A stretch of 64,000 nucleotides of DNA from Chiloscyllium plagiosum (Eukaryota): contig NC_057718.1 of NCBI RefSeq assembly GCF_004010195.1, positions 101,884,197 through 101,948,196 of the forward strand. The letters are read 5' to 3'. The notes under the pieces were generated by a model. The model was not told where the DNA came from. It worked only from the letters and a program-made list of their open reading frames with translations, and searched no databases. This document shows positions 3,389-63,151 of this stretch, in pieces. How positions within the stretch are numbered: the first letter of the stretch is position 1; every line of letters starts with the position of its first letter. Made by a program: the position numbers and the translations under genes.

Positions 3389-3389
3389 A

Positions 3390-38369: not shown

Positions 38370-38683
38370 ATGTCTGGAATGTGCTCCCTGCATGGACTGG
38401 GGAGAGAGAGCGAGGGGAGTGAGGAGCTGGGGAATTTCCAGAGGTTTACAGAGCAGTTTCAACGCTACATGCTGCGTGCCCGGGCCCTGGAGAGGAGCAG
38501 TGTCACGCTGGAGAAACAGCTGGAGAGCCTGCAGCAGATCGAGGAGCTTTCAACTCTGGAGGGAGTCTTCACTGAACAGATCGGGCAGCAGCAGCAGAGC
38601 CTGTGGCAGCTGCTCAGGGACCTGAATGTCCTAGAGAAGGAGCTAAAGGAAATGCAGCAAGTCTTGGAGCGATTCCACACCAA
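38370..38683 (+). CDS. BFSP1: Filensin-like (BFSP1 family) beaded filament protein, exon 1; start uncertain (ATG 38370, or ATG 38054 if the repeat frameshift is absent)
   Basis: LGNFQRFTEQFQRYMLRARALERSSVTLEKQLESLQQIEELSTLEGVFTEQI aligns with filensin coil 1A/1B (RARALE..L.+QL+.FQ.+.EL); phase-2 donor AA/GTAAGG. Confidence 0.85.
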
Positions 38684-38796
38684 GTAAGGTGTCTTTCTGT
38701 CCTTCACTCACTCACACTGCTACTTTACCTGTTGGCCACTGTCTCCCTCAGCGGTGAATGTACTGAGCAGTGAGTAAGACCTTCAAAGTTATTCTT

Positions 38797-39900
38797 AGAA
38801 TCAGGGAATTGTTACAGAGCAGAAGGAGGCCGTTCAGCCCACACTGCCTGCACCTGTTCTATCCCCTCTTGCCAATCTCCTCCCTTTGCCCCATATCCCT
38901 GTATGCTATTTCTATCCGAATAGTCATCCAATGCCCTTCTTGAATGTCTCAATTCAACCGGCCTCCATCACTTTTCCGGGCAATGCGTTCCTAGTCTCTG
39001 GGTGAAAAAGATTTTTCTCATATCACCCTAACCCCAATCCCTTTAAATCTACTTCCACTTTTTCTTGTTCCTTTTACAAATGGGAACAGTTTCTCCCATC
39101 GACTCCGTCCAGCCCCCTTATGATTTTGAAAACCTCTATCTCATCTCCTCTCAGCCTTCTCGTGTCCAGGAAGAACCGTCCCAACTTCCTCAATCTCCCT
39201 CCGTCACTGAAGTTTCTCATTCCTGGAAGCTTTCATGTAAATCGCTCTGCACTCTCTCCAATACATTGACATCTCCCCTATAGTGTGGTGCCCACAACCA
39301 TCCACAATAATCCAGCTGAGGTCTAACCATGACCTTGCACAAGTTCAGCATCACCTCCTTGCACTTGTACCCTATGCCCCCTATTAATAAAGCTGAGGAC
39401 AGTGAGTGCTTTCTTAACTGTTCTCTCCTGCTGCCCTTCAGTGATCTGTATCCATACACCTCCAGCTTCCTCTGCTCCTGCACCCCCTTTAGAATCGTTG
39501 CCCCATGTTATTTTGCCTTTCAATGTTTTTCTGATCAAAACGCATCACCTTACACTTCTCCCCACGCAATCTGATTTACCTCCCATCCGCCCACTCCCTC
39601 GACCTGTCAAAATCCCTGCGGAGTTCCACACTGTCCCCCTCACAGTTCACAATTCTTCCAAGCTTCGTGTCATCTGCAGAATGTGAAGCTGTCCCCTGCA
39701 CAGCAAGATCCAGGTCATTAATGTGAATCAGGAAAAGCACGGGTCCCGATACCCAAACCCCCTCCAGCAACCACACAACAAACCTTCCTGCGGTCCCAAA
39801 CATACCCATTGCCCGTGACTCTCTGCTTCCGACTGTGATCAGTTTGGTTTCCACATTGTGACTGTCCTTTTATTTCATAACCTGTAACGTTGCTCAGAAG
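38797..39900 (-). mobile_element. CR1 3' fragment
   Basis: GPVLFLIHINDLD..SADDTKLG, VRPQLDYC..WAPHYR. Confidence 0.88.
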
Positions 39901-40974
39901 TGTGATTCTCACTAATTGTGAACCTTGTACAATAATGGAATGATTTAATTAGAAGGAATTAACAGCACAGACAGAAGGCAGGCACCTGAAATCGGATGGA
40001 CGTGCACCCATTTTCTAGTCAGATCATATGGGCATCGTGGTGGGAGTGGCTTTAATTTAAGGGTGAAGCCTCCAGCAGTCAAATAGCATTGGAACCCTGA
40101 CAGTGCCACTCAGCTTTGAGCTTGTTGGTCCCACGAACAATTTGAAATGATTTCCTTTCTTGCCACTGGATATCCCTCCCTCTCTCACCGTCTGATCCTA
40201 CTCATTCACATTCCTCCTCTGTCTTTCCTCTGCCTCTTTCCCAGTTGTGTATCTCCCCCCGAGGCAGAGTTTCACCCCTTGGGTAAGGGCCAGGAAGGTC
40301 CCCCCTAGACCTCAATCTAGTTGATGGTGAGCTGCAGGGAAATGGCTGGTCCCAAACCCGGCGCTACATCAACGTTTAGGAATAAAATATGAAAGGTCAC
40401 CATACTTCACCCTCGACAATGCATCGTCTCCACCCACCTTCTGTGCTGTCACTCTCCCCTATATCAAGCCATGCCCCTTTACCCACCTCCATCATCCTAT
40501 GTTGCCCACATACCACTTTAGTCTTCATTCACACCAGCTCATGCCCTCCACCCACCATCCTTTGCCCTTATATCTAACAGCCAACTCACCCAGACTCCAC
40601 CATGAGTAGATCTCAGGACCCTAGCAAAGATGGGCAAGACTTAAGCACCTTAAAGTAAAGTTCTGTGTGTATGTTGCAGACATTATGGTATTGAGAAAAA
40701 AAATCACTCTTCTATAAAAACCTATGTTTGCATTTCCACCCCTCCAACAAGAGAAAACCTCACAACAACAATCGTTTCATTCACCTACAGCAAGCCTTAT
40801 AATTTATAGCCCCATATCACAAAGTCTGAATCCAATTGCTGCTGGCTAATCTGGGAGATGGAAGGCAACTGATTGTGACAATGCATGGTTGTGAAATCAG
40901 CCATACTACACAAATCCAGGAATGCTTCACAATACACTGAGTGAAGCAACAAGCAATCATGTTTAGAATTGAAC

Positions 40975-41285
40975 CATAGAATCCCTACAGTGTGAAAGGA
41001 GGCCATTCAGCCAATTATGACCCTTTGAAGAGCATCCCACCCAGATCCACCCTATCCCTGTAACCCTGCATTTCCCATGGCTAACCCACCTATCCTGTAC
41101 ATCCCTGGACACTGTGAGCAACTTAGCCTGGCCAATCCACCTAACCTGTACATCCTTGGACTGTGGGAAGAAACCAGAGCACACAGAATGCACAAACCCA
41201 ACACAGACAGTTGCCAGAGGGTGGAATTGAACTCAGGTCACTGGCGCTGTGAGGCAGCAGTGCTAACCACTAAGCCACTGTGTTG
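40975..41285 (-). mobile_element. HE1-type SINE
   Basis: Reverse-complement A/B boxes and core. Confidence 0.85.
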
Positions 41286-41654
41286 GCCTACTCCAGTGTT
41301 TTCAAAGGTTTAAAGTGCATGACTTTTAAATGCTTTGACTGCTGCCTTTGGCGGGTGTTTCTGACATATTGACAATACATCTATCTGGATGACAGATCCA
41401 ATGAATTACAGAACTGTTGTTGCACAAAAGGTGGCCATTCAGCCAATCATGGCAATGCCAGTTCTGTTCCCTTGTGCCAATCTCCTGCCATTGCCCTGTT
41501 TCCCTGCATAGCGTTTCCATCCAAATAATCATCCAATATGCTTTTTGATAGTCAGGAGTTTATGCCCCTTGTCCTTTGTGCCTACTTTTAATCATGGCAA
41601 AGGAAGCGGACCTCTCCCAACCATGACCTCGATCTAAGTCAGTACTCGGGCAAT

Positions 41655-41741
41655 GTTGAAACTTTATTGCTGGAACAGCACAGCAGGTCAGGCAGCATCC
41701 AGGGAACAGGAGATTCGACGTTTCGGGCACAGGCCCTTCCT
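41655..41741 (-). mobile_element. 87-bp truncated family 1 insertion with 12-bp TSD
   Basis: tactcgggcaat at 41643-41654 and 41742-41753; insert ends within the hammerhead core. Confidence 0.8.
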
Positions 41742-41934
41742 TACTCGGGCAATTCCAAAGATTCCCCAAATTCCCTGTTGGGTCCAATCTGCAGCCACCA
41801 GCTTTCACACTCCATCTTGGTTTAGAGATGGCCGGTGATTTAAATACTGACCTCCGCACAGCCAGCACGGCTGGAAATTGTGTCACTCTCCCAACCCCAC
41901 TCCCAACCCCCATCCCCCACACCCCAAAACCCAC

Positions 41935-42725
41935 NNNNNNNNNNNNNNNNNNNNNNNNNNNNNNNNNNNNNNNNNNNNNNNNNNNNNNNNNNNNNNNNNN
42001 NNNNNNNNNNNNNNNNNNNNNNNNNNNNNNNNNNNNNNNNNNNNNNNNNNNNNNNNNNNNNNNNNNNNNNNNNNNNNNNNNNNNNNNNNNNNNNNNNNNN
42101 NNNNNNNNNNNNNNNNNNNNNNNNNNNNNNNNNNNNNNNNNNNNNNNNNNNNNNNNNNNNNNNNNNNNNNNNNNNNNNNNNNNNNNNNNNNNNNNNNNNN
42201 NNNNNNNNNNNNNNNNNNNNNNNNNNNNNNNNNNNNNNNNNNNNNNNNNNNNNNNNNNNNNNNNNNNNNNNNNNNNNNNNNNNNNNNNNNNNNNNNNNNN
42301 NNNNNNNNNNNNNNNNNNNNNNNNNNNNNNNNNNNNNNNNNNNNNNNNNNNNNNNNNNNNNNNNNNNNNNNNNNNNNNNNNNNNNNNNNNNNNNNNNNNN
42401 NNNNNNNNNNNNNNNNNNNNNNNNNNNNNNNNNNNNNNNNNNNNNNNNNNNNNNNNNNNNNNNNNNNNNNNNNNNNNNNNNNNNNNNNNNNNNNNNNNNN
42501 NNNNNNNNNNNNNNNNNNNNNNNNNNNNNNNNNNNNNNNNNNNNNNNNNNNNNNNNNNNNNNNNNNNNNNNNNNNNNNNNNNNNNNNNNNNNNNNNNNNN
42601 NNNNNNNNNNNNNNNNNNNNNNNNNNNNNNNNNNNNNNNNNNNNNNNNNNNNNNNNNNNNNNNNNNNNNNNNNNNNNNNNNNNNNNNNNNNNNNNNNNNN
42701 NNNNNNNNNNNNNNNNNNNNNNNNN
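41935..42725. other. Assembly gap (N run) flanked by C-rich repeats
   Basis: Run of N; both flanks contain acaccccaaaaccc. Confidence 1.
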
Positions 42726-43719
42726 ACACCCCAAAACCCCACCCCATTACCCAACTACCAACACCTTGCCCTATCCCCAACATCCCAAAACCCCAGCCCC
42801 CCATGCACTCACCAACACCTCCCCACACCAGACCCTAAACCCGTTCCTTACTCATTCTCTCTCCACAGATGCTGCCAGACCTGCTGAGTTTCTCCAGCAA
42901 TTCTCTGGGCCAGGATCCATTGTGGGGTTTAAGAGGGGATGCTGGTGTAATTAAAGGCAGAGATTGTGATTCCGATGTAATTTCAATTGAATCCCCGATG
43001 ACTGGGAATTGTTCACGGCTGAAAGACATTGTCTCCTTAGCAACTGCTACAATTTCATGTTATCCTTTTAATTCCATCGGTTAAACTAGTGTAACCATTA
43101 ACAGGCGGTTAATCGGAAATGTTATAAAGGACAGTGAGATCAGAAATAAACAACTTGGCCAGGACAGATGAGCTTCAGCTATGGTCCACCACCAGGGGTC
43201 CTCGATGTATCACTTTCACTTGCTCCTTGCTCCTCAGGAGATGTGGGTGTCACTGAGCAGGCCAGTATTTGTCATCCATCCCTAATTGCCCTCGAGAGGC
43301 TCGCTTGGCCACTTCGGAGGGCAGTTAGGAGTCAACCCTGTTGCTGTGGGTCTGGAGTCACATGTAGGCCAGACCGGGTAAGGACGCCAGATTTCCTTCC
43401 CTAAAGGGCAGTAGTGAACTGAATGGGTTTATACAACAATTGATGACCAGCTTTCAATTCTGGACTTTATTAAATGAGTCTTAATTCTGCCTGGTTGCTG
43501 GGTGAGAATTAGCCCTGGCCTCTGGATTATGAGCCTAATGGTGTAATTACCATTAGCTCCCAGATGGTTTGATGTCAGCTGTAAGTGTGAATGCCATCCT
43601 GGGGGTAGACTCTATCCAATATCGCAGCATGGATACAGAGATCAAGAGCAACTTATAATCAACAGAGTGGATCATCACAGTGCCCTCTCGATGGGGAAGG
43701 ACAGCTAACAAAACTACCA

Positions 43720-44085
43720 GCATTTATGAAGCTCCTTTAACATGCAACAATGTGCATTTATATAGCTCCTTTAATATGCAGCTACATACATTTATATAGC
43801 TCCTTTAACATGCAACAATGTGTATTTATATATTTCCTTTAACATGCAACTACATGCATTATCTAGTAATTAATAACATGCAACTATGTGCATTTATATA
43901 ACTCCTTTAACATATAACTATGTGCATTTACGTAGCTCCTTTAGCATACAACTATGTGCATTTACGTAGCTCCTTTATATGCAACTATGTGCATTTATAT
44001 AGCTCCTTTAACATGCAACTATGTGTATTTATATAGCTCCTTAATATGCAACTACATGCATTTATTTAGCTCCTTTGACATCCAA
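43720..44085 (+). repeat. 34-bp AT-rich minisatellite, about 10 units
   Basis: Unit atgcaactatgtgcatttatatagctcctttaac. Confidence 0.92.
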
Positions 44086-44559
44086 CACAAAAACAAGGCA
44101 AGGTAATTCACAAGACCATCACCAAACAAAACAGGAGGCCGAACCACCGTGGGAGATATTGGAGCAGGGAGCCTAAGAGAATGCATCCTAATAAGCAGAA
44201 GAGAAAGTGAGGCAGAGAGATCTAAGAAGGAAAAGGAAGGGACAAAATGATGCTGGGATTCAGTGAAAAGTAGGAGGGGTCTGAGCAGAAGGAGTTGTCA
44301 TTTGGTTGCAGATAAAATATTTCAGTCACTTTCTCAAATGCAATCCCTCACTATTTTTTGGTTTAACTTCCTGTCTGTTTAAAGCAGTGTTTATAGATCC
44401 ACATAAGATCTAGTCTCTCATCTTCCCGGATACAGAATACTGAGCATATAGCTTCTGTTTTGATAATTGTTGTTCCTTCTGGAAAAATGCCAATTGCACT
44501 GTAGCAGCATCACTACATCGTGCTGCCTCAGTACAACCAGCAGAATGTACCCGCATTCT

Positions 44560-44865
44560 TCCCAACACAGAAACAGGCCATTCGGCCCAACTACTCCATG
44601 CTGCATTGAGCCACACAAGCTCCCTTCCTTGATTTTCCGTACCTTTTGCAACAAGTTCTGGACTAAAGTGCAAATGGCTCTATGCCAGCTTACCTGCAAT
44701 CTTACACATGTAGAATTTCCAGCACAAAAACAGGCCATTCGGTCCAACTACTCCATGTTGTAATTAAGCCACACAAGCTCCCTTTCCTTACTGGAGTTCT
44801 CACTGACTTTCTGTACTTTTTGCAACAAGTTCTGGTCTAAACTGAAAGTGGCTCTATGTCAACTA
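44560..44865 (+). repeat. Tandem duplication of about 160 bp
   Basis: aaacaggccattcgg.ccaactactccatg..ttgcaacaagttctgg..tggctctatg occurs twice. Confidence 0.85.
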
Positions 44866-45084
44866 CTCTCGGAACCTTTCACAGTCCTAAGAACATGTCA
44901 ATCCTCAGGGTTCTTTTTGAGAGAAAGAAGCCTCAGTTTATTCAGTCCTTCCTGATACAGTAACCTCTTTCTCAGCACAAGCTGCCATTTATGTTGCTTT
45001 TACCAGTAAATGGCCCCGATCACATAAAACCAAAAAGAATGATGCACTAAAAGAACACCACTTGAGGAGGAGATGAAAGAGAAG

Positions 45085-45410
45085 CTCATCAAAGATCCTC
45101 AGGCAGCACCTTCCAAACCCATGGCCGCTACCATCCAGAAGAACAAGGACAGCGGATGCATGGGAACACCACCCTCTGCAAGTTCCCCTCCAGGCCACTC
45201 ATCACCCTGACTTGGGAATATATCGCCATTCCTTCACTACCACTGGGTCAAAATCCTGGAATTCCCTTCCCAACAATATTTTAGGTGTTCCTGTACCGCG
45301 TGGTCGGCAGTGGTTCAAGGAGACAGCTCAACACCACTTTCTCAAGGGGCAATTAGGCAATAAATGATAAATATTGGCCTGACCAGTGATACCCACAACC
45401 TGCAAGTGAA
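45085..45410 (+). mobile_element. LINE (L2/CR1-group) 3' end fragment
   Basis: gcaccttccaaaccc..gggtcaaaatcctggaattccc..caccactttctcaaggg; related copies near 54530-54790, 58175-58510 and 60810-61020. Confidence 0.7.
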
Positions 45411-45568
45411 TCAAAATAACATTTGTGGAAATCAGTCTGGTAAGGGAGTGCGGAATGACCTTAAGTGATGCTGATTTTTACTTATGTTTGTGTATTATTG
45501 CTGGACCTTGGTTTTGACCGGGCAACTTTGGAAAAGGCTTAGAAAATAACATCAGAAATTGCTGGGAA

Positions 45569-45606
45569 AGTTCTGAGGAAGGGTCACTGTGCCCGAAACG
45601 TTAACT
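45569..45606 (+). ncRNA. Minimal type I hammerhead ribozyme motif (family 3) within a short element at about 45553-45698
   Basis: AGTT-CTGAGGA-A-GGGTCA ctg TGCCC-GAAA-C-GTT-AACT: 4-bp stem I AGTT/AACT, GUU triplet, palindromic AACGTT. Confidence 0.72.
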
Positions 45607-45719
45607 CTGATTTCTCCCCACTGCCAGACCTGCTGAGCTTTTCCAGCAGTTTCTGTTTGTGTTTCTGATTTCCAGCATCCACGGTTCTTTCAGTTTTTAT
45701 GAGTAGAAATAAATTTCTC

Positions 45720-46272
45720 CGCACCTGGAGTATTGTGTGCAGTTCTGGTCTCCAAATTAGAGGAAGGACATTCTGGTTATTGAGGGAGTGCAGCGTAGGT
45801 TCACAAGGTCAATTCCCGGAATGGTGGGACTATCGTATGTTGAAAGATTGGAGCGGCTGGGCTTGTATACACCTGAGTTTTGAAGGCTGAGAGGGGATCT
45901 GATTGAGAGTATTAGATTATTAAAGGATTGGACACTCTGGACGCAGGAAGCACGTTTCCGCTGATGGGTGAGTCCCGAACCAGAGGACATAGTTTAAAAA
46001 TAAGGGGTAGGCCATTTAGAACAGAGTTGAGGAGAAACTTCTTCACCCAGAGAGTGGTGGATATATGGACTGCTCTGCCCCAGAAGGCAGTGGAGGCCAA
46101 GTCTCTGGATACTTTCAAGAAAGAGAGCTTTTAAAGATAGTGGAATCAAAGGTTATGGGGATGGCAGGAGCAGGATACTGATTGTGGATGATCAGCCATG
46201 ATCATAATGAATGGTGGTGCTGGCTCGAAGGGTCAGATGGCCTACTCCTGCACCTATTGTCTATTGTCTATT
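45720..46272 (+). mobile_element. CR1 3' fragment with (CTATTGT)n tail
   Basis: ESRTRGHSLKIRGRPFRTELRRNFFTQRVV; tail ends about 30 nt upstream of filensin-like exon 2. Confidence 0.9.
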
Positions 46273-46301
46273 CATTTTGCTTGTCTTGCTTTCACCCATA
46301 G

Positions 46302-46356
46302 AACAGAATATGAGAACAACCAACAACTTCAGGACACCTTTGAAAACCTGAATAAG
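46302..46356 (+). CDS. BFSP1: Filensin-like exon 2
   Basis: ttcacccatag acceptor; (K)TEYENNQQLQDTFENLNK versus filensin ..L.E.LERLNK; phase 2 to 0; donor GTGAGA. Confidence 0.85.
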
Positions 46357-46984
46357 GTGAGATGCTTACCATTGACTATTCACAGTCATTGTCATAGAGT
46401 CACACAGTACAGAAAAGACCCTTCGGCCCATCAAGTCCACCCAGAACTATCCACGCTAATCCCACTTCCCACACTTGGCCCATAGCCTTGACTGTAATGA
46501 CATTTCAAGTGCTTATCAATTGCACAGCATCCCAGGGGAGAACTGGTCAAAAGATTGAGGCTTGTGGTCGTGTAGTGGCTCTTTAGATGTCCGGCCAACA
46601 CCATTGATTATCGAATACCTCGCAACAACACATTCCCAAATTTGCTCAGCCCCCAGTTTTACTACTCCATAAATGAATGGGTTTTGAATGATTTAAAATT
46701 GGGCTTTGTACTTGAAACAAATGTTAATATCAATGTACGAACAAAACCCAGATACAAACAGTTAACTTAATTGAAGTCACAATTCTTGGGTGGTGTAAGA
46801 ATGAAATAAACAAAAGTCCTAAGGCTTCACTTTGGTTTCCTTGTCATCATGTCTCTCTTTTATCTCATGTCCTCAACTTGAGGTCTTAGGAATATCACGT
46901 GTTGCTTTCGTTAACTGTGAATGACATTTCAAATCTTAAATTTTCCAAAGTGAACACTAAGTTCATCCATTTCCAAAGTCTTAT

Positions 46985-47300
46985 CATAGAATCCCTACAG
47001 CGTAAAAGCAGGCAATTCGGCCCTTCAAGTCCACACTGACCCTCCACAAAGCGGCCTGATTCCTCCCCGCTGGCCTTGCATTCCCCATTGCTAAACCACC
47101 TAGCTTGCACATCCCTGGAGACTGTGGGGCAATTTACCATGGTCAATCCACCCTAAACTGTACATCTTTGGACTATGGGAGGAAACCCATGCAGATACAG
47201 GGAGAATATGCAAACGCTACACAGCCAGCTGCCCAAGGATGGAATTGAACCTGGGTTCCTAGTGCCAAGAGGCAGCAGTGCTAACCACTGAGCCACTATT
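46985..47300 (-). mobile_element. HE1-type SINE
   Basis: Reverse-complement A/B boxes and core. Confidence 0.85.
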
Positions 47301-48311
47301 CCACTCACAGGTGGAAACCATTCAGCCCCTTGAACTCATTCAGATACTCAGTGAAATTATGGTTTATGTATATGGCATCTCTAATCACCCACCTCGATTC
47401 CATATCTCATAATGCCCTGGGCCTGCAAGTGTAACTTATCTAAGATTAAGCTGAAGGGAAGTGAGTAGATCACCCTTCCCACCTTTGCTGGTGCCACTGT
47501 GGACCTCTTACAAAGCAATAGATAGTATTTCTGGGCTAGGTGTTCTGAGTTTATGGGTCCATCAGGAATTCTGTCTTATGGCAGAAGTGTCCATAATGCA
47601 GTTCAGCAGGTTGGTCAGCTTGTGGATCTTCCCACCACCTCCCTGCTATTCTCCAGAGGGTGTGTGAGTGAAGGTGTGTAAATCAGATACTTCCCAAACA
47701 AGGTGCAGTACTGACTGGGGCTCAGGAGATGAGAAGATGACTCCACTGATGTGTCAGTGAGTGAGTGTAGGACATGGTGCAGTGGTGAGTTGGGAAGAAT
47801 ATTGGGTAGCTGGAGTGAGCCAGTGTTGATTGTTTGGTGGGCTAGGAATAGATGGGTGCAACTAACATCATTGGGGTAGGAAGGAGGTCAGGACAGGTCA
47901 TGAAACAGTCAGTTGTATTAGCACCAAATGTCTTCATGGTGCTCATACCCTGTGTAGTTGTTAATTGTATATTAAATAAGGTTTTAATTTCATTGAAGTA
48001 GTGGCGTAAACTGGAGAGACTGAATAGGCTTTTCCCTGGAGCATCAGAGGCTGAGGGGTAACCTTGTAGAAATTTATAAAATCATGAGGGGCATGAATAG
48101 GGTGAGTAGACAAAGTCTTTTCCATGGGTAGGGGAGTCCAAAACTAGAGCGCATAGGTTTAAATTGAGAGGGGACAGATTTAAAAGCAACCTATGGGGCA
48201 ACTTTTTCATGCAGAGGGTGGTGTGTGTATGGAATGAGCTGCCAGAGGAAGTGGTGGAGGCTGGTACAATTACAACAGTTAAAAGACATCTATTGGGTAC
48301 ATGAATAGGCA

Positions 48312-48468
48312 TAATAGCAGCACCATTTAAACTAATGGGGCCAGAATCGAGTTATAACCAATAGACTCTTTAAAAATGTGTCCTTTAGAAACAGTGTCCC
48401 CAATTCGTGAGTCGTGTTATAGCAGATTTGCAGTAACACAATGCGCATTATAGCAGACTGGCCTGTAT
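48312..48468. mobile_element. Possible Tc1/pogo-type MITE fragment abutting a CR1 fragment (about 48015-48310)
   Basis: Repeated gttata/attatagcaga subterminal motifs, ends cctgTA. Confidence 0.4.
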
Positions 48469-49197
48469 TTATGAAGGAGAACACAAACAGGGGTGTAATG
48501 TTAAAGGTCTGACGCATGAATAGCTACTTTATACTGTCCTACATAGCTGGTTCACAGGAGGGAGTGCTGCCTACTGTGGTTGAAAAGCCAGGCAACTGAA
48601 CTATTGCAGGACACATATCCTGGGGTTTTTCCCGACTGCGTGATAACAAGGTCACAGAGTCACCAGTTGAAACAGAGAGAGATCAAAAAGTACAGATAAG
48701 AAAGTTCAAGTGGAATTAGCAGAGACCCTGTTTGATCAAATAGTACAAACTGACCTGTAAATGAACAGACCCATTCATAACCAGGGAACTACTTGTATAG
48801 AATCACAGAATCCCTATAGTATGGAAGCAGACCATTCAGCCCATTGAGTCCACACCGACCCTCCAAAGAACATTCCACCCAGACCCACCAATCCTATCCC
48901 TCGAACCCTGCATATCCTATAGCTAATCCACTGGAACTGCTGGTCAATGTTGGAAATGAATACCTGTGTCATACATCTCTCTAAATAAATGCTTACGGAA
49001 TTTGTACCAATTAGGGTCCAGTTGTATCCTTCCCTGCCTAGTTATTTGGTGTAGAGTATGGCTGTAAGTATGACAGCACGGTGCTCTCCCCATGCTAAGA
49101 GAGGATATTGCAGCCTACAGTCAGTCAGTACAAGAGCTTGATCATTAGAAGGGAGAGTTTTGGAAATCTCATTTGTATGTCATCTTCTTCACCTCAG

Positions 49198-49293
49198 AAT
49201 GCAAATGAAGCTTTATTAAAGAATTTGGAATTGCAGATCCGTACGCAATTCCTCCAGGAAGATATAAACTCCACCAAAGAGAGAAACAGGAAG
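49198..49293 (+). CDS. BFSP1: Filensin-like exon 3
   Basis: NANEALLKNLELQIRTQFLQEDINSTKERNRK versus filensin [32 protein letters not shown]; 96 nt, canonical AG/GT. Confidence 0.95.
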
Positions 49294-50284
49294 GTATGTG
49301 CTGTCAATTATTTAACCATTCGGTGTAATGATGAGCTAAGTGAGTCATTCCCGCCTGTCAATAATAAATAGCCCGTGCCACCCTTTGTCCTGGAATTTAC
49401 TTTAATTTAAAGCTGTGCATAGTTTTGTAAAGACTGAACGATGTAGTGTTTGTCTGAGGCTTCAGAATGTGTGATTGTTTTCCGGACAGCTGCTTAAACA
49501 AATTAATAAAAGCTCTTTGAAATGCACAAGTGCAAAAATATTTAATAAAACCTCAAAGAACGTCGGATGCTGGAAATCAGAAACAAAAACACAAATGGCT
49601 GGAAAAGTTCAGCAGGTCTGACAGCACCTATGAGCAGAAATCAGAGTTAATGTTTCAGATCCAGTACTGACCAAGGGTATTGCTGTAATGTAACTTTTTT
49701 TCTTCACTTCTCTAATCTGTACCAAAGGATTGTAGCTAGGTACCTTAATGGAACGTGTGGTGCTGGAAAAGCACAGCAGGTCAGGCAGCACCTGAAGAGC
49801 AGGAGAATCAATGTTTAGGCCAAGAGCCCTTCATCAGGATGGTGCTGGAAGTGGCGATGTATGAACTTTTCACTGTAGCCATTTGAGTACGTGTGACAAT
49901 AAAGCTAATTCAATTCAATTCACTGGACCAAAAATGTTGACTCTGGTTTCTTTCCACAGATGCTGCCAGACCTGCTGAGCTTTTCCAGCAATCTCTGTTT
50001 TCATTTGTGCAAAGTATTGATCCAATTTCAGGCATAGAGAGAACTTTGAAGCTGTCATTGAGAGCAGCAGTTTCTGTTTTTCCCACTACTTTGTCCTTGC
50101 CCGAGATTAATGGTTACTTTTTACTTGCTCCTTGAATAATTTCTTCATAACAGTCTTAAGATTGTTGCAAGTACAATTAAATCATGGTCCACTTCAGGAT
50201 ATCATTGAGGGGGAAGCCCTGGTGTGCCTTTGAGTGATATCAGTGATGGAATCTAATCGTCAGGAGTTTCATCAGTCTCTGTAT

Positions 50285-50603: not shown

Positions 50604-50674
50604 CCGTATCTGTTGCTATTGATCGAAAATGATGTAAAGTGATCATTGTTTGATTTTCTGACATGTTTCTGCAG

Positions 50675-50764
50675 AATCTCACAGAAATCCAGGACTACCT
50701 GAATGTTGTGAGGGATGTGCGGCAGTCGATAAGCTGTGAACCCACAACCACGTTAAGCTGGGAG
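50675..50764 (+). CDS. BFSP1: Filensin-like exon 4
   Basis: tttctgcag acceptor; NLTEIQDYLNVVRDVRQSISCEPTTTLSWE versus NLLEVQTYISILQQI; donor GTAACC. Confidence 0.9.
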
Positions 50765-51332: not shown

Positions 51333-51437
51333 GGAGAAGAGAAGGAGCTGGTGGTGGACAGGGGCTCAGAAAAGGTATCTGGGTTAGACAACGGCGAGAG
51401 TGACCCCAGTCCATTAACGAGCCAGAAAGGGAATGAG
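51333..51437 (+). CDS. BFSP1: Filensin-like exon 5 (highly diverged)
   Basis: Strong acceptor cttgtccttcttacag; GEEKELVVDRGSEKVSGLDNGESDPSPLTSQKGNE; 105 nt, phase 0-0; donor GTCAGT; position and size fit exon 5. Confidence 0.72.
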
Positions 51438-53034: not shown

Positions 53035-53512
53035 TGATTTACAAGGATGTTACCAGGGTTGGAGGGTTTGAGCTTTAGGGAGAGGCTGAATGGGCAAAAG
53101 CTATTTTCCCTGGACCATTAGAAGCTGAGAGGTGACCTTATAGAGATTTATAAAATCATGAGGGACAATGTCTTCCCCGGGCTGGGGAGTTCAAACTAGA
53201 GGGCAAAGATTAATATGGGAGAGGAATGAGCGCCAGGGACCCAGGTTCGATTCCACCCTCGGGCGACTGTCTGTGTGGAGTTTGCACATTCTCCCCGTGT
53301 CTCCCCCGTTTCCTCTGGGTGCTCCAGTTTCCTCCCACAGTCCAAAGATGTGCAGGTTGGGTGAATTGGCCATGCTAAATTGCAAATAGTGTTCAGGGAT
53401 ATGTAGCTTAGGTGTATTAGTCAGGGGTAATGTAATATGGTAGGGGAATAGGTCTGGGTGGGTTACTCTTTGGAGGGTCGGTGTGGACTTGTTGGGCTCT
53501 TAGGGATTCTAT
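53035..53512 (+). mobile_element. CR1 3' fragment joined to a 5'-truncated HE1-type SINE
   Basis: CR1 sequence to about 53225, then B box GGTTCGATTCC and SINE core. Confidence 0.8.
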
Positions 53513-54234
53513 GGTTTAACTGCCTGTGTGCCATTGGCCTGGGGCAGCGAGGGGCTGGAGAGGTTAATGAAGGTTGGTTTGATATTTGCTGCTATACTCC
53601 TTGGCCTGTGTTCACATGAAATGCTTCTGCCTCCTTCCTAGCTCATAGCCAGTTCTATTTAACCATCAGTGCCCTCTGTGCTCTCTGACCTACATTAGCT
53701 CCTGATTTTAACACCCAGCCTTTACGCATTGCAATCCAACCACCGCCTACCCGCCTCTGCCAAACCTCTGTAATCTCTCTGCTAATTCCCATCTCTTGAG
53801 CTGCCCCAGTTTCAATTTCTTCACCATCAATGTACATGTCTTCAACGGCCTGAGGGCCTCAAGCTCTAGAATCTACTGAAGGCTGAGGGAGTTAGATTTT
53901 CGATAGGCAAGAGAGGTAAAGGCAGTGGGTCATTAGAGAGTGGGTGGGGGGAGGTGGAGCAGGTCAGGGGTGGAGCTAAGGTACATCTGGATCAACCAGG
54001 ATTTTATTAAATGGTAGAACAGCTTGGAAGAACAATCCCATGATTTTAATTCCCTACATCGCTCTGATTCAGCCTATCTCTTTCCTTCTTTAAGACACTT
54101 CTTAAAACCTACCTTTGTTATCAAGTCACCTGTCCCTCGGAGCTCAGTGATTTGGTGTTAAATTCTGTTGGACAATCTTCTCATTTTCTTTTTATTCATT
54201 CATGGGACGTGGGCACTGCTGGCTCCATACCTAG

Positions 54235-54520
54235 AATCATAGAATTCCTACAGTGCGGAAGCAGGCCATTCGGCCCATCGAGACCACACCAATCCCTCTA
54301 GGATCATCCCACCCAGATCCACCCCCCCCCCTACCCTAACCCTGTAACCCTGCATTTCCCATGGCTGATCCACCTAACCTGCACATCCCGGGACACCATA
54401 GGCAATTCCCGTGGCCAATCCAAATTAATCTGCACATCTTTGGATTGTGGGAGGAAACTGGAGCACCCGGAGGAAACCCACGCAGACACGGGGAGAATGT
54501 GCAAACTCCACACAGACAGT
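54235..54520 (-). mobile_element. HE1-type SINE fragment inserted in a LINE 3' fragment
   Basis: SINE core and tail; host repeat resumes at about 54521. Confidence 0.8.
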
Positions 54521-56106
54521 GGCTGGTCCAGCATTTATTGTCTATTCCTAATTGTCTACTTTGAGAAGGTGGGGGTGAGCTGCCTTCTTGAACCGCTGCA
54601 GTCCCTGTGCTCTAGGTAGATCCACAATGCACTTAGGCAGGGAATTCCCAAATTTTGATCCAATGCCAAAGAAAGAACGGCGATATATTTCCAAGTCTGG
54701 ATGGTGAATGCCTTGAGTGGAACTTGTAGGGGTGTGTTTTCCCATGTACCTGCTGCCCTTCTGAATGTTAGAGGTCATTAATTTGGAAGCATTTTATTGT
54801 GCTAAAGGTACTATCTAAATGCAAATTGCTTTTGTGACGAATTTTGTAGTAGATGGCATCATGCAACATTGGACCCATACAGCATGATCTCAAATTGCCT
54901 TTATCCCATCTAATTTCTCATTGTTGCAAATACCTTGAGAGCTTCTATTTGTCTGTTTTGCATGTGTACGTAACTCCTGATTCAGGACCTACTAAAGACT
55001 GTTAAAATGATTATTGTTTTCATAATGTTTCATAGAAGCATTGCAGTTATTAAAAATGGCATTGGCAAACTATATCAGCTTATCGCCTGTGGGTGGAGTG
55101 TTAGCTCTTGGATGGTCAGGCAGCATTAATGTATCAACTGGCAACTGTTCTTTCAATCTCTGGGCCACCAGGCAGCAGCATCATCCCACAATGTGGGCTC
55201 CAGTCCAGTTCTCATTATTATGAGAGGGGCATAATAATTCTGCTTTTGTTCTACAATGAAAGATTAAATACATCTTCTGTCAGATAATGCCACCTGGAGT
55301 TTGTTTTATGATCGTGTAAAGGTCAGCGCTACACGGTTTTAGCCCTTGTGGATCAACATCAGGCTCCCTGTGGGAGCAACTTGTGCTGTGAACAGCTGAG
55401 ATTAGGGCCACACAATGACTGGTTTCTGGCGATGGATTAGGATATTTCATGGACTCGTCAAAGAAACAATGGGTTGATTTTCCTTCGGGTGAACTACCAC
55501 AGGATTTAAAAAGAACCAAGGAGTATTTTTTTTGAATGAGCTGGTCGGGTCCTAAGGTACATTGCTGCTGGACTGGTAAGTAAAAAAACCACAGGTTCCT
55601 GGGATGGGAGTGCGTGCTCAGTTACCTTAAGAGGTAAGACTTGACCCTGTATTCATTGGAGTTTAAAAGGACGAGAGATGATCTTAACAAAATAAGTAAG
55701 AAGATCCTGAGGGGATTGGATAGGATTAATACTGAGAGAATATGTGAGAGACTGGAACTAGGAGGCACTGTTTAATAAACAGGAGCCTTTTTCTGGTTCT
55801 GACAGAGATAAAGAGGTCTCTGCTCTCCCAGGATTGTGATTCTTTGTAACTCTCTTCCTCAGTGAGCAGTGGTCATCAAATATTTTTAAATTAGAGGTCG
55901 ATAGATTCTGGGCTAAAGGGGGAGTTAAACATTTTTAGGAGTAGGAGAAACAGTAGAGTTTAGGCCGCAATGTGATCAGCCATGAATTTATTGAATGGTG
56001 GAGCATGCTCGAGGGGCCGAATGGCCTCCACCTGCTCCAAACTTGTATTTTTACACATATGTGATGATAAATACTTAATATTACTTCAATCTCATTGCAT
56101 GAAAAG

Positions 56107-56327
56107 ACAACAACAGTGGAGCAGCCAACTGCCAACATGCATGGAGGTGAGCTAGATCAGATGCAATCACACAGGGAGCAAATTGAGGTCTTGAAGAAAA
56201 AGTTGGGAGAAGTTGAGAGGAATTTGGAACAATGTGTCAACGAGTGTCGATGTGTTGTCATGTATCAGCAGTCGCTGGATGATGAACTGGAGAGTTACAA
56301 GAGATTTATAGCAAATGAAGATTCCAG
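56107..56327 (+). CDS. BFSP1: Filensin-like exon 6 (coil 2 and rod end)
   Basis: TTTVEQ..EQIEVLKKKLGEVERNLEQCVNECRCVVMYQQSLDDELESYKRFIANEDSR; 221 nt, phase 0-2; weak aag acceptor; donor GTGCGT. Confidence 0.93.
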
Positions 56328-56454
56328 GTGCGTAATGGGACTTTTCAGTACCTTTACAATTGTCCAGAAAAAATTACCTAAAAGTAGGAATCCAATATAA
56401 AGTGGATCTTGGGGTCCAAAAAGTGAAACTGTGTTATCATTTAATAAGACTGAT

Positions 56455-56733
56455 TAGAATCCCTACAGTGTGGAAACAGGCCATTCAGCCCACACTAGCA
56501 TCCCACCCAATCCCTATTTTTCCCATGGCTAACCCACCTAGCCTGCACGTCAGGGGCAATATAGCATTACTAATTCACCTAACCTGCACATCTTTGTGTG
56601 GGAGGAAACTGGAGCACTCAGAGGAAACCCATGCAGACACAGGGAGAATGTGCAAACTCCACACAGACTCAAGGGTGGAATCGAACCTGGGTCGCTGATG
56701 CTGTTAGGTAGCAGTGCTAACCACTGAGCCACC
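56455..56733 (-). mobile_element. HE1-type SINE
   Basis: Reverse-complement A/B boxes and core. Confidence 0.85.
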
Positions 56734-57539
56734 CAGCTTCTTTTTTTTAAAATCAGCAAAATGTAGAATTAAATTAATATTTGCCTCTTTTGTGACCCCT
56801 GTGGTATAAATGAATTTGCTGTATATTGAATAGTGATTACAATAGACATCCAGGTATTAGTTTTGCCTTACAGCATCAATGTATAATGCTTAGTTTTCAT
56901 TGCATATGAACTTCTTGAGATTATTTCTGAAGTAGTGGAGACTTTATTCTACTGTGAAATGTAACTGTTTAATCAATTTTGTTTTCATCAAAAGCGGGAA
57001 GATACTGTCGAATGATCCCTTGTAAGGGGTCTGCATGATATTGTTAAATAGCTTGTCAGCTCCAATTATATTTATATAGCACTTTTAATTGATAAATTGC
57101 CCCAAGGTTCTTCACAGGAAGATTGTAGAAGAAAGTATGGCACTGCTGCAGTTAAGCAGAGATTAGGTCAGAACACCAAGTGCTTGAGATAGATTTTAAG
57201 AGGGGAATCTTTAAGGAGGAAGAGAAGATGGTGAGGCAGAGAGATTTAGAAAGGGAATCCCAGAGATAAGAAGGGTCACTGGACCTGAAAAGTTAATTCT
57301 GACTTCTCTCCATAGTTGCCACCTGAATGGCTGAGATTTTCCAGCAATTTCTGTTTTTGATTCAGATTTCCAGCATTCACAGTTCATCCAGCTTTTTTTT
57401 TTGCCCAGAGATTCAATGGCGCAGTGATGACATTCAGGGAGACCCAACAGGCCAGAGGCCTCCTTCCAGAAGGACAAGAGTAAGGTTTTAATTAGCACTC
57501 CATCCATACCTTCTACATTCGCACCTTCCACAACATCGA

Positions 57540-58140
57540 ACATAGAACATTACAGCACAATGCACACCCTTTGGCTGTTGATGCTGTACCAATCTGTGGA
57601 AACAATCTGAAGCCTACTTATCCTGCCCAATGACCATTTAAATGCCCTTAAAGTTGGCGAGTCTCCTACTGTTGCAGGCAGAGTGTTCCATGCCTTTATT
57701 ACCCTCGGAGTAAAGAAACTACCTCTGACATCTGTCCTATATCTATCACTCCTCAATTTAAAGCCGTGTCCCCTCGTGCTCGCCGTCACCATCCAAGGAA
57801 AAAGACTCTCACTGTCCACCCTATCGAACCCTGTGATTATCTTATATGTATTGAAAATGTGTTGCTGGAAAAGCGCAGCAGGTCAGGCAACATACAAGGA
57901 GCAGGAGAATCGACGTTTCGGGCATGAGCCCTTCTTCAGCGTCCTGAAGAAGGGCTCATGCCCAAAATGTCGATTCTCCTGCTCCTTGGATGCTGCCTGA
58001 CCTGCTGCGCTTTTCCAGCAACACATTTTCAGCTCTGATCTCCAGCATCTGCAGTCCTCACTTTCTCCTAGAAGACATTATCGTATATGTCTCAATTAAG
58101 TCACCTCTCAACCTTCTTCTCTTTAGTGAAAACAGCCTCA
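57540..58140 (-). mobile_element. CR1 3' fragment with nested palindromic family 1 insertion (about 57850-58076)
   Basis: TSD attatc(t/g)tatatgt at 57836-57849 and 58077-58090; intact minus-strand hammerhead core CTGAAGA..GGGC tcat GCCC GAAAC GTC at about 57907-57941. Confidence 0.85.
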
Positions 58141-58789
58141 TGTCCTCATAACCTGGCACACATTGGCAGCAGTGTGCACCATCTACAAGATGCATTGCAA
58201 TATCTCACCCAGGCTCCTTTGAACATCCCAAACCAGTAATCTCAACCACCTAGAAGGACAACAGCAGCAGATATATGGGAACACCACCCCCTGCAAATTC
58301 CCTCAAAGCCACTCCTCATCCTGACTTGGAAATATGTTGCCATTTCTTCACTGTCGCTGGGTCAAAATCCTGGAATTCCCTCCCTAAGATCAGCACATGG
58401 ACTACAGTGGTTCAGGAAGGCAGCTCACCCCCACCTTCTCAAGGGCCAGCGAAGGATGGGTAATAAATGCTGGGCCCAGCCAGGAAAATCCACATCCTGT
58501 GAATAAAAAGGGAAAACAAATCTTGGAGGGTTTCCAGTCAGAACTAAGAGAACCCTGGCCATGAAGGGTATTTGAGAGAATTTTAATATCAAAACATTGC
58601 TCAAGCAGAACCCAATGTATTTGCAGATGCATTCTATTTTGTTCAAAACACACACAATTTGTAGTCACAGTCAGTCAGCGTCTTATAAATTCCAGCTTTC
58701 AGAATAAAACCAGCCTGATTCCAGGTTAAAACTCTTGAGACAGATTCTGAACAAAGCCTCACACCCACAATACAGTGTCTGACCGATAT

Positions 58790-59115
58790 GTCACTTTTTG
58801 TATATTGCTATCGCTCTGCTTGATTGTCATAATAGCACAGCACTGACATTGACTTTATAAACACTTTACACACCATCGAATGCTCTGGGTCACCTGCAGA
58901 CACTCGACTCATACCAGTTGTATGATCTTCTGATCTCTCTGCCCTTGATGTCTCTGCGTATGAACCCAGTGACTGTGTCTCTGTGTCTCTCCGCACCTGA
59001 CGAAGGGGCAACACTCTGAAAGCTTGTGATTTCAAATCAACCTGTTGGACTATAACCTGGTGTTGTGTGACCTCTGCCTCTGTCCACCCCAGTCCAACAC
59101 TGGCACCTCCACATC
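58790..59115 (+). mobile_element. Family 2 Penelope-derived 3' region with degenerate hammerhead
   Basis: CAC CTGACGA ... GAAAGCTT GTG at about 58994-59028 followed by gttggactataacctggtgttgtg. Confidence 0.6.
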
Positions 59116-59604
59116 AGAACCCAGTGTAGGTCAGCAGCACAGGGTGTGATGGGTGAAAGGTTCTTGTTGTGAGTTAAGAAACCAGTGACAGAATTCTGAG
59201 AAATAGTTAAACAGTTTATAACGAAGCCTGTAAAAAGCTATAACATCTTCCAAGGTCTGTTAGGTAGATTTCTGATATAAAATGAAACCTGAGCGCCTCT
59301 CACTCTCTGCAGGAATGTGTGTTGTTTAAATTTTCAGGAGTCACATTCAGGTAACAGTCTCCTATTTACTTTACATTGCCTCTTTCCTGTTCACTGGACT
59401 GACCCCAAGCTGTGAGAATGGGATCATTTGGTCATTAATTAAAATGCTACCCTTGCCTTGCGATATTAGTTCTGCAGGGATTGTCCACTCAGCCATGGCT
59501 TGACCTTCCAAACACACTTGGCCCATTCGGCTGCTACGTGTTGCAGGCTCTGACTCAGTTGACACATGGAGCTGAGAGAACAAGCTCAATAGTTGGAGAT
59601 TCTC

Positions 59605-60065
59605 ACTCTGGCCGATCGTCCAACTCAATGGCCTAATCCTGCTTTCTCCCCATAACCTTTGATCCCATTCGCCCCAGGTTCTGCATTTGGCCACCTCTTG
59701 AATACACTCAATGTTTTGGCATCAGTTACTTCCTGGGGTAATGAATCCCACAGACTCCCCACTCTCTGGGTGAAGAAATATCTCCATCCTAAATGGCCCA
59801 ACCTGAATCCTGACTGTGACCCCTTGTTCTGGGTGCATCCACAATCGGGATTATCCTCCCTGCATCTACCCTGTCTAGTCCTGTTGAATTTTATAAGTCT
59901 CTATGAGATTCCCCCTCTCACTTGTCTGAACTCCAGTGAAAACAATCCTAACTGAGTCAATCTCTCATCATACCTCAGTTCCACCATCCCCGGAATCAGC
60001 CTGGGAAACTTTCACTGCTGTCCCTTGAGAGCAAGAGCATCCTTCCTCAGAAAAGGAGACCAAAA
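59605..60065 (-). mobile_element. CR1 3' fragment
   Basis: WSPFLRKDALAL and CR1 3' region sequence. Confidence 0.8.
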
Positions 60066-60356
60066 CCCTTCTTCTACAACAGCACCTGAACACAATGTAA
60101 CAACAGCCACCATGCATAAGACCTGGAATATTGTGGAAAAAAGCCCAAGGTGTTTGCAGACTGAATGGTTGTGGGCACTGGGTATTGGCAGTAAGGGAGT
60201 AAAATTATCTGGCACTGTCACCCCTCTGAGGGTTTGCAAATTATTGAGGAAGTTGATGGAACATGATTTTCCTAGACCTCTCCTGCTGCATGTTAAAGAG
60301 ACCTGCCAATAATTAATTCTTATTCAACCATTAATCTGATATATCTCACTTTTCAG

Positions 60357-60439
60357 ATCACAACCCACTCCAACTAAGGCAACCGCAATGTCAGCGAGCA
60401 GTCGTTATGACAACACAGAGGTCTCACCTGTGGGCAAAG
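60357..60439 (+). CDS. BFSP1: Filensin-like exon 7
   Basis: ctcacttttcag acceptor; (R)SQPTPTKATAMSASSRYDNTEVSPVGK(D); 83 nt phase 2-1 restores frame into exon 8 and ends GK-D as in filensin; donor GTCAGA. Confidence 0.78.
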
Positions 60440-61375
60440 GTCAGATGCAAATTTGCATGTAATCAAAAGTTAAAGTTTTTAACGTATCAGGAGACTCTGC
60501 AGTCACTTTTGTTTCATCCTGATGGTGACGGAATCTGGAATTATTCTGTTATACTTTTTGAAAGAGGAGGCAGCTTTCAACACTTTGAAAAGAATCCAAA
60601 GCCATTATGTTTGGGTGATTTTATAAACGGGTTTGACTTTTGAGAGATTCAGCAAGAGGAAAAACATTTCTTCATTCATACACATGGCATAGATATCCCT
60701 GACTGTAATTTTGAAGGACATTCAATGGACCCAAATTGTGAACTCTGCTTTCTCTCCACAGATGCTGCCTGACCTGCTGAGTTTCTCCAGCAATTTGTGT
60801 TTTAGCTTTAGCATTTATTGCCTGCCCCTAATTGTCCTTGAGAAGGTGGTGATGAGCTGCCCTCTTGAGCTGCTGCAGTCTGTGTGCTGTAGGTAGTGCT
60901 ATTAGAGTGGGAATTCTCGGACGTTTGAACCAGTAACACTGAAGGAACAACGATACGTTCCAAGTCAGAATGGTATGTAACTTGGAGGGGAGCTTGCAGG
61001 GGCTGCTGGTACCATGGATGACCAGGCAGCAAAGGGGCAACTTTAAAAAAAAGATCCTTGACACTTTACGACATACAAAAGCAATGAATAGATTTGTAAC
61101 TTTACGGAACTGCATTGAGATTCCTTGAGGGTGGAGGATGGGGAAGCAGTGGATCAGACGAGGGGTAGAGGTTTTGACCTCCATTATGAAAGTACTGGGG
61201 ACAGGATACTTTTCACCTTTGGCCATGCCCAGCTTGACCAGGTTGGGGTTTGTGAGTGGGGGTGAGGGAACCGGGGGAAAGGTGAGTAGAAGTGGAGACC
61301 CTATCCCAGGATCAGATATTGAAAATAATGCTAACCTGGTCTTGCCCTTCTCTCTCCCTGTTGACAACCAAGTAG

Positions 61376-61730
61376 GGCAGCATGATGGCTTAGTGGTTAG
61401 CATTGCTGCCTCACAGAACCAGGGACCCGGGTTCAATTCCAGCCTCGGGCAATTGCCTATGTGGAATTTGCATGTTCTCCCCGTGATGGCATGAGTTTCG
61501 TCTGGTTGCTCTGGTTTCCTCCCACAGTCCAAAGATATGCAGATTAGGGTGGATTGGCCATGCTAAATTACCCATAGTGTCCAGAGGTATATAGGTTAGG
61601 TGTGTTAGCCATGGGAAGTGTAGGGTTACAGGGAAAAGAGTAGGGAGATGGGTCTAGGTAGGATGTTCTTCGGAGGGTCAGTGTGGTCTTATGTGACTTA
61701 ATGGTCTGTTTCCACACTGTGGGGATTCCA
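61376..61730 (+). mobile_element. HE1-type SINE
   Basis: A/B boxes and core. Confidence 0.88.
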
Positions 61731-62108
61731 TGGAAGTAAGTACAGATACCTGTCACTCTTCAGTGAATTCTATAACAAAATAGATTCTCAAAACTCCTGA
61801 AATGCCTCCAGTTCCCTGCTGCTGGGTGCCAGTGTTGAGTATAAATGTATATTGAGAAAATGTTAGGTATTTTCCTCACTGCTATGACATGACTAACTCT
61901 TGATGTGTTATAGGAGAGGGTTTATCACAAGAATCATAAAGGTTTTCACTGATGCCATTTTAGGATAAAGATATGTGCCTGACTGATTCAGTAATGGTCG
62001 TCCTACCAATATGTTCGCTTTAAGTTTGCTTAGATTTAACTGAAGATTTGTTGAACAGCACTCTCAGCTAATAAGTCAGTTAAAAAAATGGCATTCTATT
62101 TTTGTTAG

Positions 62109-63151
62109 ACATCACTGTGGCTGCACTATACAGTGTACCTCTTCAGGCCAGTGAAATAATGCACTCCAGAAAAGCATCAAAGAAAAAGGACATCACTTCG
62201 TCAGGTGACAAATGCAGTAATGGAGCGGAACAGGAATGTGCAAAGAAACCTTCTGAAGTGAGTGAAGACTGTAAAATCAGTGCCAAGGAAGATGAGGAAG
62301 AAGATGAGGATGTTGAGTTTTATTCTGATGAGGGAGAAGAGGCCACAAAACCAGATGATGTACCAGATGGAGCACAGATCAGTCGGCTTTATAACGCCCT
62401 GTGTAATATAGTCCGGGACAGAATGGGAAGACATAAGAAATCTGAACCACCTGTAGCAACGTTCTATACCAAAGGGCACTATGTGTTAGTCACAGGTGAA
62501 GCCAGTTATATGGACCCTTTCTTCTGTACAACAGTTCCTACGAGGAGTCAAGTGATAGTTACGTTTGAGGACCAACCTTTCCCTGCTGATATAGACACTC
62601 TACCACAGCCTGACCTCCCCACCCCTTTAAAATATAATGGAGATGGTGATGGCAAGAAAGACTTTGACTCCACTAAAGAGAATGGCAAAGACCGTGAGGG
62701 TGAAAAAAAGGATGAAAAGGCAGATGATGGAAAATCCGGTGGTAATGGAGAACTGAAAAGACCGATAATATCGGCATCAATTTTACCCCCAACCCCATCA
62801 CTGCCAGATCCTTCTCAAGCCTCCGATTTCAAACCCACACCTTTCAGTGGCCCATCTACACCACAGTCGGATGCAACCAGTCCTGATAACCTGGCATCAA
62901 GAGGTGGTCCTCCTGGACAGCAGCAGAAAGAGGACAAAGATAGAGCAACCATTATCACTCCAACCCAGCCACTATCACCTGACCAGAGAACCCCAGAGGA
63001 GCCGAAGTATAGGTACTATGAGAAGATAGAAATGACTGAAGCAGTTGAGACATTTAGAGACAATAAGCTGGAGGGTTACTCAGAGACCTCCACCATTGTA
63101 GAGACCACGGTGGAAAAGACAAGCCAGGAACAGAAGGCAAAAAGATCCTGA
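62109..63151 (+). CDS. BFSP1: Filensin-like exon 8 (tail domain, stop)
   Basis: tttgttag acceptor; PDDVPDGAQIS, FYTKGHYVLVTGEASYMDP and YEKIEMTEAVE..YSETSTIVETTVEKT match the conserved filensin tail blocks. Confidence 0.96.

Follow-up and report, generated by a model that had tools for sequence, protein, structure and literature searches.

A single filensin gene of the bamboo shark with a fast-evolving rod and a conserved tail core

We analysed a stretch of 64,000 nucleotides from the bamboo shark Chiloscyllium plagiosum (C9:101,884,197-101,948,196; the window below), which carries a gene for the beaded-filament subunit filensin (BFSP1). A reading made from the letters alone had proposed either an inversion or an inverted duplicate, and had put forward as possible a second BFSP1 paralog that would give sharks an extra filament subunit. 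The reading that we hold at slightly better than even is as follows. The gene would be the only BFSP1 of the genome, flipped together with PCSK2; sharks and rays show a several-fold acceleration in its rod and none in its tail core, and the protein would act mainly through its tail. Shark filensin would then serve as a membrane partner more than as a full filament subunit, and would contribute little, or differently, to beaded filaments of the phakinin type.

Gene model and orthology

The gene model has eight exons with AG/GT borders and intron phases 2,0,0,0,0,2,1, which add up to 2007 nt and 668 amino acids with a lone stop at the end. The product is the same, letter for letter, as record P0001, named filensin isoform X1 of a bamboo shark; the locus is already annotated as filensin. 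The exon borders and this identity bear out the intact eight-exon frame described earlier. Its layout may match that of other filensins, judging by the exon sizes we take these to have and by isoform and indel boundaries in protein alignments.

The product is 94-95% identical to its two closest relatives, and its top Atlas clusters are 'filensin' (0.96). A protein search gave 46 matches, nearly all of the named ones filensin or filensin-like (two are unnamed, and two hypothetical or uncharacterised). Compared with the two closest relatives, the acceptor of exon 2 lies 6 nt further 3', which leaves two codons fewer. The dropped codons persist in the intron (window 46290-46302), and the expected upstream acceptor site is not AG.

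For the tree, a quick IQ-TREE run with SH-aLRT support only, we chose 25 filensins out of about 144: eleven rows from chondrichthyans, nine from ray-finned fishes, five from amphibians and none from amniotes. The shark product groups with the whale shark and zebra shark (SH-aLRT 100). This carpet-shark clade falls inside the galeomorph sharks (99), and these inside the chondrichthyans (100), with the chimaera basal. The filensin tree follows the species tree, and a bootstrapped rod-only tree agrees with it. A separate branch, as a paralog would form, was not seen: the product nests among shark filensin orthologues and is an ordinary one.

The rod, the tail and the partner phakinin

At the ends of its rod the protein carries FTEQF (residues 26-30) and SYKRFIANEDSR (residues 283-294). 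The helix initiation motif of filensins, LN.RF in fish or LGER in mammals, is not present, and the alignment puts FTEQF at its position; it also confirms the absence of the head motif RKEKYE, both as the sequence-only reading had said. RKEKYE is kept in 2 of 11 chondrichthyan rows. Two other carpet sharks have FAELF and FAERF, other elasmobranchs keep FN..F/L, and in the 11 rows the Asn at this place is missing only from carpet sharks. Since this motif varies within filensins, FTEQF marks a derived state and not exclusion from the family.

The modified termination motif of the RY.RIIE.E type is present, as SYKRFIANEDSR aligns with RYKRIIENEDNR. SYKRFIANED is common to 4 of the 11 chondrichthyan rows, and RYKRIIENED is the motif in most fish and amphibian rows. 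Mammalian filensin has RYHRIIE(I/N)EG (PMC10626283). The altered rod end had thus been located correctly, but its comparison with TYRKLLEGEE overstated the change, because RYKRIIENED is the normal filensin form and the shark motif is near it.

The divergence is real and lies in the head and rod, not in the tail core. When unshared changes were counted with gar as the outgroup, the rod of the window protein had 78 against 12 for chimaera (p 3.5e-12) and 49 against 15 for white shark. Against chimaera the tail core gave 8:12 and the C-terminal block 7:6, and the rods of two bony-vertebrate control pairs showed no asymmetry (14:14 and 21:18). A rod excess was found in seven of seven elasmobranchs tested (p at most 1.7e-4), a tail excess in none of the seven.

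Root-to-tip distances on a fixed species tree give the same picture. For the rod they are 0.73-0.83 in five carpet sharks, 0.32-0.55 in eight other elasmobranchs, 0.08 in chimaera and 0.14-0.23 in eight fishes and amphibians. For the tail blocks they are 0.17-0.37 in elasmobranchs, 0.38 in chimaera and 0.05-0.40 in fishes and amphibians. Of the sharks, rays and skates compared, it is the carpet sharks whose rod branch is longest. The gene was rightly called strongly diverged, with a rod branch of 0.75 for the window protein against 0.08 for chimaera, but this holds for a single orthologue across sharks and rays.

Erosion also extends to the proximal tail, which is 26% identical against 57-71% among bony vertebrates, and to the first half of coil 2. 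Of the 35 residues in the exon-5 segment, 7 are Gly/Pro, versus 1-2 of 37-39 in bony vertebrates. AlphaFold monomers, built with the same 19 sequences for shark and sturgeon (pTM about 0.2), have a coil 2 helix at 232-295 (64 residues) with 175-232 disordered in the shark, and at 206-325 (120 residues) in the sturgeon; an unbroken coil 2 of some 120 residues, as expected of filensin, is not predicted for the shark protein. All eight ray and skate records (seven species; annotation models) are without some 38 residues at the exon-5 segment, and the interval spanning exon 5 counts 41-44 residues in them versus 79-82 in three comparison proteins. From these alignments and predictions we take elasmobranch rod erosion to be real at the protein level. 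It is apparently undescribed: a literature search, with most subscription journals beyond reach, found no paper that deals with the evolution of filensin in sharks or with this gene order.

The tail core and the C-terminal block evolve at a normal rate. DVPD-GAQISR is intact at residues 405-414; of the 11 chondrichthyan rows, 10 have DVPD-G and one has DMPD-G. AlphaFold predicts a helix at 409-428, after DVPD, whose amphipathic discrimination score is 1.12.

The threshold for this score is given as 0.68 (PMC10297038). In human filensin, caspases cut after DVPD, and the exposed glycine is then myristoylated; the residues after it fold into an amphipathic helix that binds membranes, and the fragments change how calcium regulates AQP0 (PMC6713518, PMC10297038). 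Conservation of the caspase and myristoylation motif is described as reaching from the whale shark to human (PMC6713518).

By analogy with the mammalian work, shark filensin would be expressed in lens fibres, cleaved by a caspase after DVPD and then myristoylated at G409, and its amphipathic helix would bind membranes and modulate AQP0. We infer that the function of the tail is under normal constraint and that the filament function is weakened or altered. Selection on the rod may have been relaxed, and co-assembly with phakinin may have become weaker.

Known filensins fit into this comparison as follows. With those of chimaera, ray-finned fish and amphibians (P0011, P0012, P0051, P0031, P0039) the shark protein shares the coil 1B core, the modified RYKRIIENED-type motif, DVPD-G, the TKG.YVLV block, the C-terminal YEK.E block and perhaps the eight-exon intermediate-filament layout. 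Unlike them, it has lost the head motif, has FTEQF for LN.RF, a Gly/Pro-rich exon-5 segment and an eroded proximal tail; its rod is 39-49% identical to theirs, whereas they share 63-85% among themselves. The orthology group, the rod acceleration and the conserved tail core are common to it and other shark, ray and skate filensins (P0002-P0010, P0145, P0146, P0304-P0309), but in batoid records the exon-5 segment is absent outright. Mammalian filensin also has altered rod-end motifs (LGER and RYHRIIE(I/N)EG) and a long tail (PMC10626283), as well as the caspase site, the cryptic myristoylation site and the amphipathic helix (PMC6713518, PMC10297038). The mammal-like record P0160 keeps the first half of coil 2, unlike the shark protein. 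As a side observation, P0176 is a filensin-like protein of 760 amino acids, possibly from a jawless vertebrate, with a rod about 30% identical to all others.

What the rod erosion means depends on phakinin (BFSP2), the loss of which, if real, would explain the pattern. Beaded filaments disappear when either subunit is lost, and there are wild-type mouse strains with a deletion in Bfsp2 (PMC7479064). The rod-end motifs of filensin are described as already non-canonical, neither subunit assembles alone, and the proximal tail of filensin is needed for filaments (PMC10626283).

BFSP2 was sought in five indirect ways; no genuine BFSP2 sequence served as query or as positive control in any of them. 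A Pfam Filament scan of the genome found no BFSP2 (101 matches; 127 of 195 candidates scored), but it also missed BFSP1, whose exon 1 gives a weak match under the cut-off (E 1.8e-4). A termination-motif pattern gave one match versus two control matches, in a frame closed by stops, and we judged it a chance hit. The end-of-rod exon of a type I keratin gave 22 matches of 36 scored, and none of the 20 that were read is phakinin-like; the first exons that were checked, five together and two more separately, are of the ordinary keratin type. A motif pattern with two mismatches allowed gave 0 matches. Home-made keratin profiles, which did detect the diverged exon 6 of the window (E 0.009), found no phakinin-like exon in 200 kb at CDV3, 590 kb at TMEM108 and one small contig.

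One candidate, an LLDREE exon at C33:1,527,086, was rejected as phakinin: its gene starts mid-rod, stands at the end of a type I keratin cluster and has the tail FDLHLAATDE. We take this gene to be KRT222-like. By synteny, BFSP2 is expected near TMEM108. The TMEM108 matches lie on opposite strands (C33:43.40-43.48 Mb) and on the unplaced contig C88886, in a region with 2.5-13% N, which suggests a local mis-assembly at the very place foreseen for BFSP2. The supplements of PMC8733776 contain no rows for phakinin or BFSP2.

It is possible, though short of probable, that the same single, rearranged orthologue still builds working beaded filaments, and that its rod diverged together with a phakinin that was missed. 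The shortened coil 2 would then be tolerated or adaptive, and phakinin would have escaped the indirect searches or be absent from the assembly; the fragmented TMEM108 region could account for such a miss. Several observations favour this reading and weigh against a role mainly of the tail. Coil 1A/1B is still one confident predicted helix (17-173), the end of coil 2 is still a predicted helix, exon 3 is well conserved, and every chondrichthyan record that was aligned has an intact frame. The LGER-type filensin P0160, mammal-like by this motif, has a rod branch of 0.67 versus 0.73 here, with its exon-5 segment intact; as mammalian filensin builds filaments, rate alone does not mean lost assembly.

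Published work adds that filensin tolerates a 29-residue truncation of coil 2 and altered end motifs, and that in rat it assembles without its head (PMC10626283), so the loss of RKEKYE says little. For the tail itself, one skate record (Rhinoraja) has DVTD instead of DVPD, and the orthologue proteins compared are annotation models. What makes working filaments the less probable outcome is that roughly half of coil 2 either is not helical or has been deleted, that the proximal tail is eroded as well, and that no phakinin-like exon turned up with the keratin-exon query or in 790 kb around CDV3/TMEM108.

Sharks and rays may even have dismantled the beaded filament, with BFSP2 lost, the rod decaying stepwise and the gene kept only for its myristoylated tail, but we think this rather unlikely. 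Half of coil 2 would be unfolded in sharks and deleted in rays, and the caspase-released tail would bind lens membranes and AQP0. If true, this would be a natural separation of the two functions of filensin across a whole vertebrate subclass. A relic in decay, without function and with a frame that mutations have so far spared, is scarcely credible: the rod acceleration and the shifted exon 2 acceptor would suit a relic, but the open 668-codon frame, the high identity to two relatives and the normal rate in the tail core and C-terminal block do not.

Seen as a graded natural series, elasmobranch filensins run from the intact chimaera protein through the unfolding coil 2 of sharks to the deleted coil 2 of rays, with the tail core constant. 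They touch on a question of lens biology, namely how far the filament role of filensin and its membrane/AQP0 role are separable. With the paralog rejected, a modest lead in lens evolution remains.

Copy number and gene order

The genome was searched with three filensin queries. A tail-core query gave one match of eight candidates scored, at the window locus. Full-length sturgeon filensin, with a stricter first look and 67 of 75 candidates scored, gave 13 matches, three at the locus (41-46%) and ten elsewhere (26-36%); the eight of these ten that were read are long first exons of the neurofilament type with LNDRF. The N-terminal 188 residues of the chimaera protein gave seven matches of 33 scored, two at the locus (47% and 72%) and the other five at only 24-30%. 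An unfiltered filensin profile found no match at E<1 in the 320 kb past the window, which include 216 kb beyond PCSK2 exon 1.

Neither an inverted duplicate nor the second, more conserved BFSP1 that the sequence-only reading had suggested looking for beyond PCSK2 was found in these searches, genome-wide or in the 320 kb downstream, and the genome very probably holds a single BFSP1 orthologue. The sequence-only reading had set its paralog against an only BFSP1 that groups as the ordinary orthologue on a normal branch. Copy number and tree position agree with the latter; the branch length does not.

Filensin records exist for at least 21 chondrichthyan species, and there is one gene in 20 of the 21 among the matches listed (120 of 538 in one search). 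The exception is a catshark with a second 'filensin-like' record, P0152, beside P0150. From exon 2 on, P0152 matches the catshark's own filensin in 569 of 594 aligned residues, and its N-terminus is unrelated; it would seem to be a recent duplicate or a false duplication. P0152 is also without exon 1 and sits on a contig of the same length as that of P0150.

Upstream of BFSP1 lies a gene that we take, from its sequence and position, to be OTOR. From its end (29109) to the BFSP1 ATG there are 9.26 kb on the same strand, as the earlier estimate of about 9 kb had it. Between OTOR and BFSP1, scanning for convertase motifs gave no credible PCSK2 exon, which likewise agrees with that account. Convertase exons with HGTRC, WASGDGG, GTSAA and RDMQH lie downstream of BFSP1, with the P-domain at C9:101,958,933-101,959,193 on the minus strand, and the Asp in GDGG marks the gene as PCSK2. 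It ends 11.4 kb past the BFSP1 stop, just outside the window, so that the two genes stand tail to tail.

Together with a minus-strand kinesin exon that we take to belong to KIF16B, the order here is KIF16B(-) OTOR(+) BFSP1(+) PCSK2(-). The mammalian order is OTOR(+) PCSK2(+) BFSP1(-). Since BFSP1 and PCSK2 are tail to tail in both, one inversion of the pair relates the shark order to the mammalian one. Of the two explanations first offered, rearrangement is the one supported: BFSP1 and PCSK2 have turned round as a block with respect to OTOR.

Further out, the neighbourhood likewise departs from the mammalian one: the best RRBP1-type match is 19 Mb away on C9, and none of four cofilin/ADF matches is on C9. 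In mammals SNRPB2 lies between KIF16B and OTOR; a motif scan of window 367-15373 found no SNRPB2-like exon there. A scan of 121 frames, chosen from 790 non-repeat frames, revealed no other gene in the 216 kb past PCSK2 exon 1.

An inverted duplicate that serves as a second subunit of this kind, next to a conserved BFSP1 on the far side of PCSK2, is very improbable on this evidence; if true, it would have added a third subunit to the beaded filament. An assembly of 101,977 contigs with gaps, the stricter first look of the sturgeon search and the second catshark record leave it some room. But a conserved copy would outscore the locus with the chimaera and sturgeon queries, and none appeared there or in the sequence downstream; the species-like tree and the one gene record in nearly all chondrichthyan species also speak against it, as does the tail-to-tail relation that PCSK2 and BFSP1 share with the mammalian pair. 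A scaffolding artefact behind the gene order is hardly to be believed either: several N runs do occur in the region, among them one within OTOR and another within intron 1 of BFSP1, but there is none between the OTOR end and the BFSP1 ATG or between the BFSP1 stop and the PCSK2 end, and the exons flanking each run are in order on one strand.

Features of the window and its surroundings

Coordinates of the features are collected in the table.

Table. Features of the BFSP1 locus and of genes named in the text (window positions unless a contig is given)
Feature	Position	Strand	Remarks
KIF16B-type kinesin gene, first coding exon (MASVKVAVRVRP)	1..367	-	in CpG island; name presumed
OTOR-type gene (MIA/SH3 family)	15373..29109	+	four coding exons; SH3 match; name presumed
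BFSP1 exon 1	38370..38683	+	short head without RKEKYE, coil 1A, start of coil 1B
FTEQF in exon 1, coil 1A	38445-38459	+	residues 26-30
BFSP1 exon 2	46302..46356	+	55 nt
BFSP1 exon 3	49198..49293	+	96 nt, coil 1B; most conserved of the rod exons (72% against the chimaera protein)
BFSP1 exon 4	50675..50764	+	coil 1B end and linker; skipped in annotated isoform P0147
BFSP1 exon 5	51333..51437	+	residues 186-220; coil 2 first half in other vertebrates
BFSP1 exon 6	56107..56327	+	221 nt, coil 2 end and termination motif
Termination motif SYKRFIANEDS in exon 6	56293-56325	+	
BFSP1 exon 7	60357..60439	+	proximal tail (tail A), strongly diverged
BFSP1 exon 8	62109..63151	+	tail, closes with TGA stop
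DVPD caspase site, cryptic myristoylation glycine G409 and amphipathic helix (putative)	62357..62422	+	conserved
PCSK2	C9:101,958,789-102,052,096	-	about 93 kb; signal and pro-domain exon at about 102,052,096
KRT222-like gene (presumed)	C33:1,499,400-1,535,400		end of type I keratin cluster; LLDREE mimics phakinin

Past the BFSP1 stop, hexamers of the polyadenylation type (AATAAA/ATTAAA) occur at 63503, 63649 and 63751. The sole convertase-motif match inside the window, RDVQH at 25539, was rejected, as its context is not that of a convertase and resembles downstream repeat frames.

Two tandem-repeat arrays lie in the OTOR-BFSP1 interval, at window 35975-37550 and 38060-38290, the second just 5' of the ATG; they are close to where one inversion breakpoint would fall. 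Intron 1 of the OTOR-type gene holds a broken LINE-1-like element (window 17066-21747), in which ORF1, endonuclease and reverse-transcriptase frames were read by eye.

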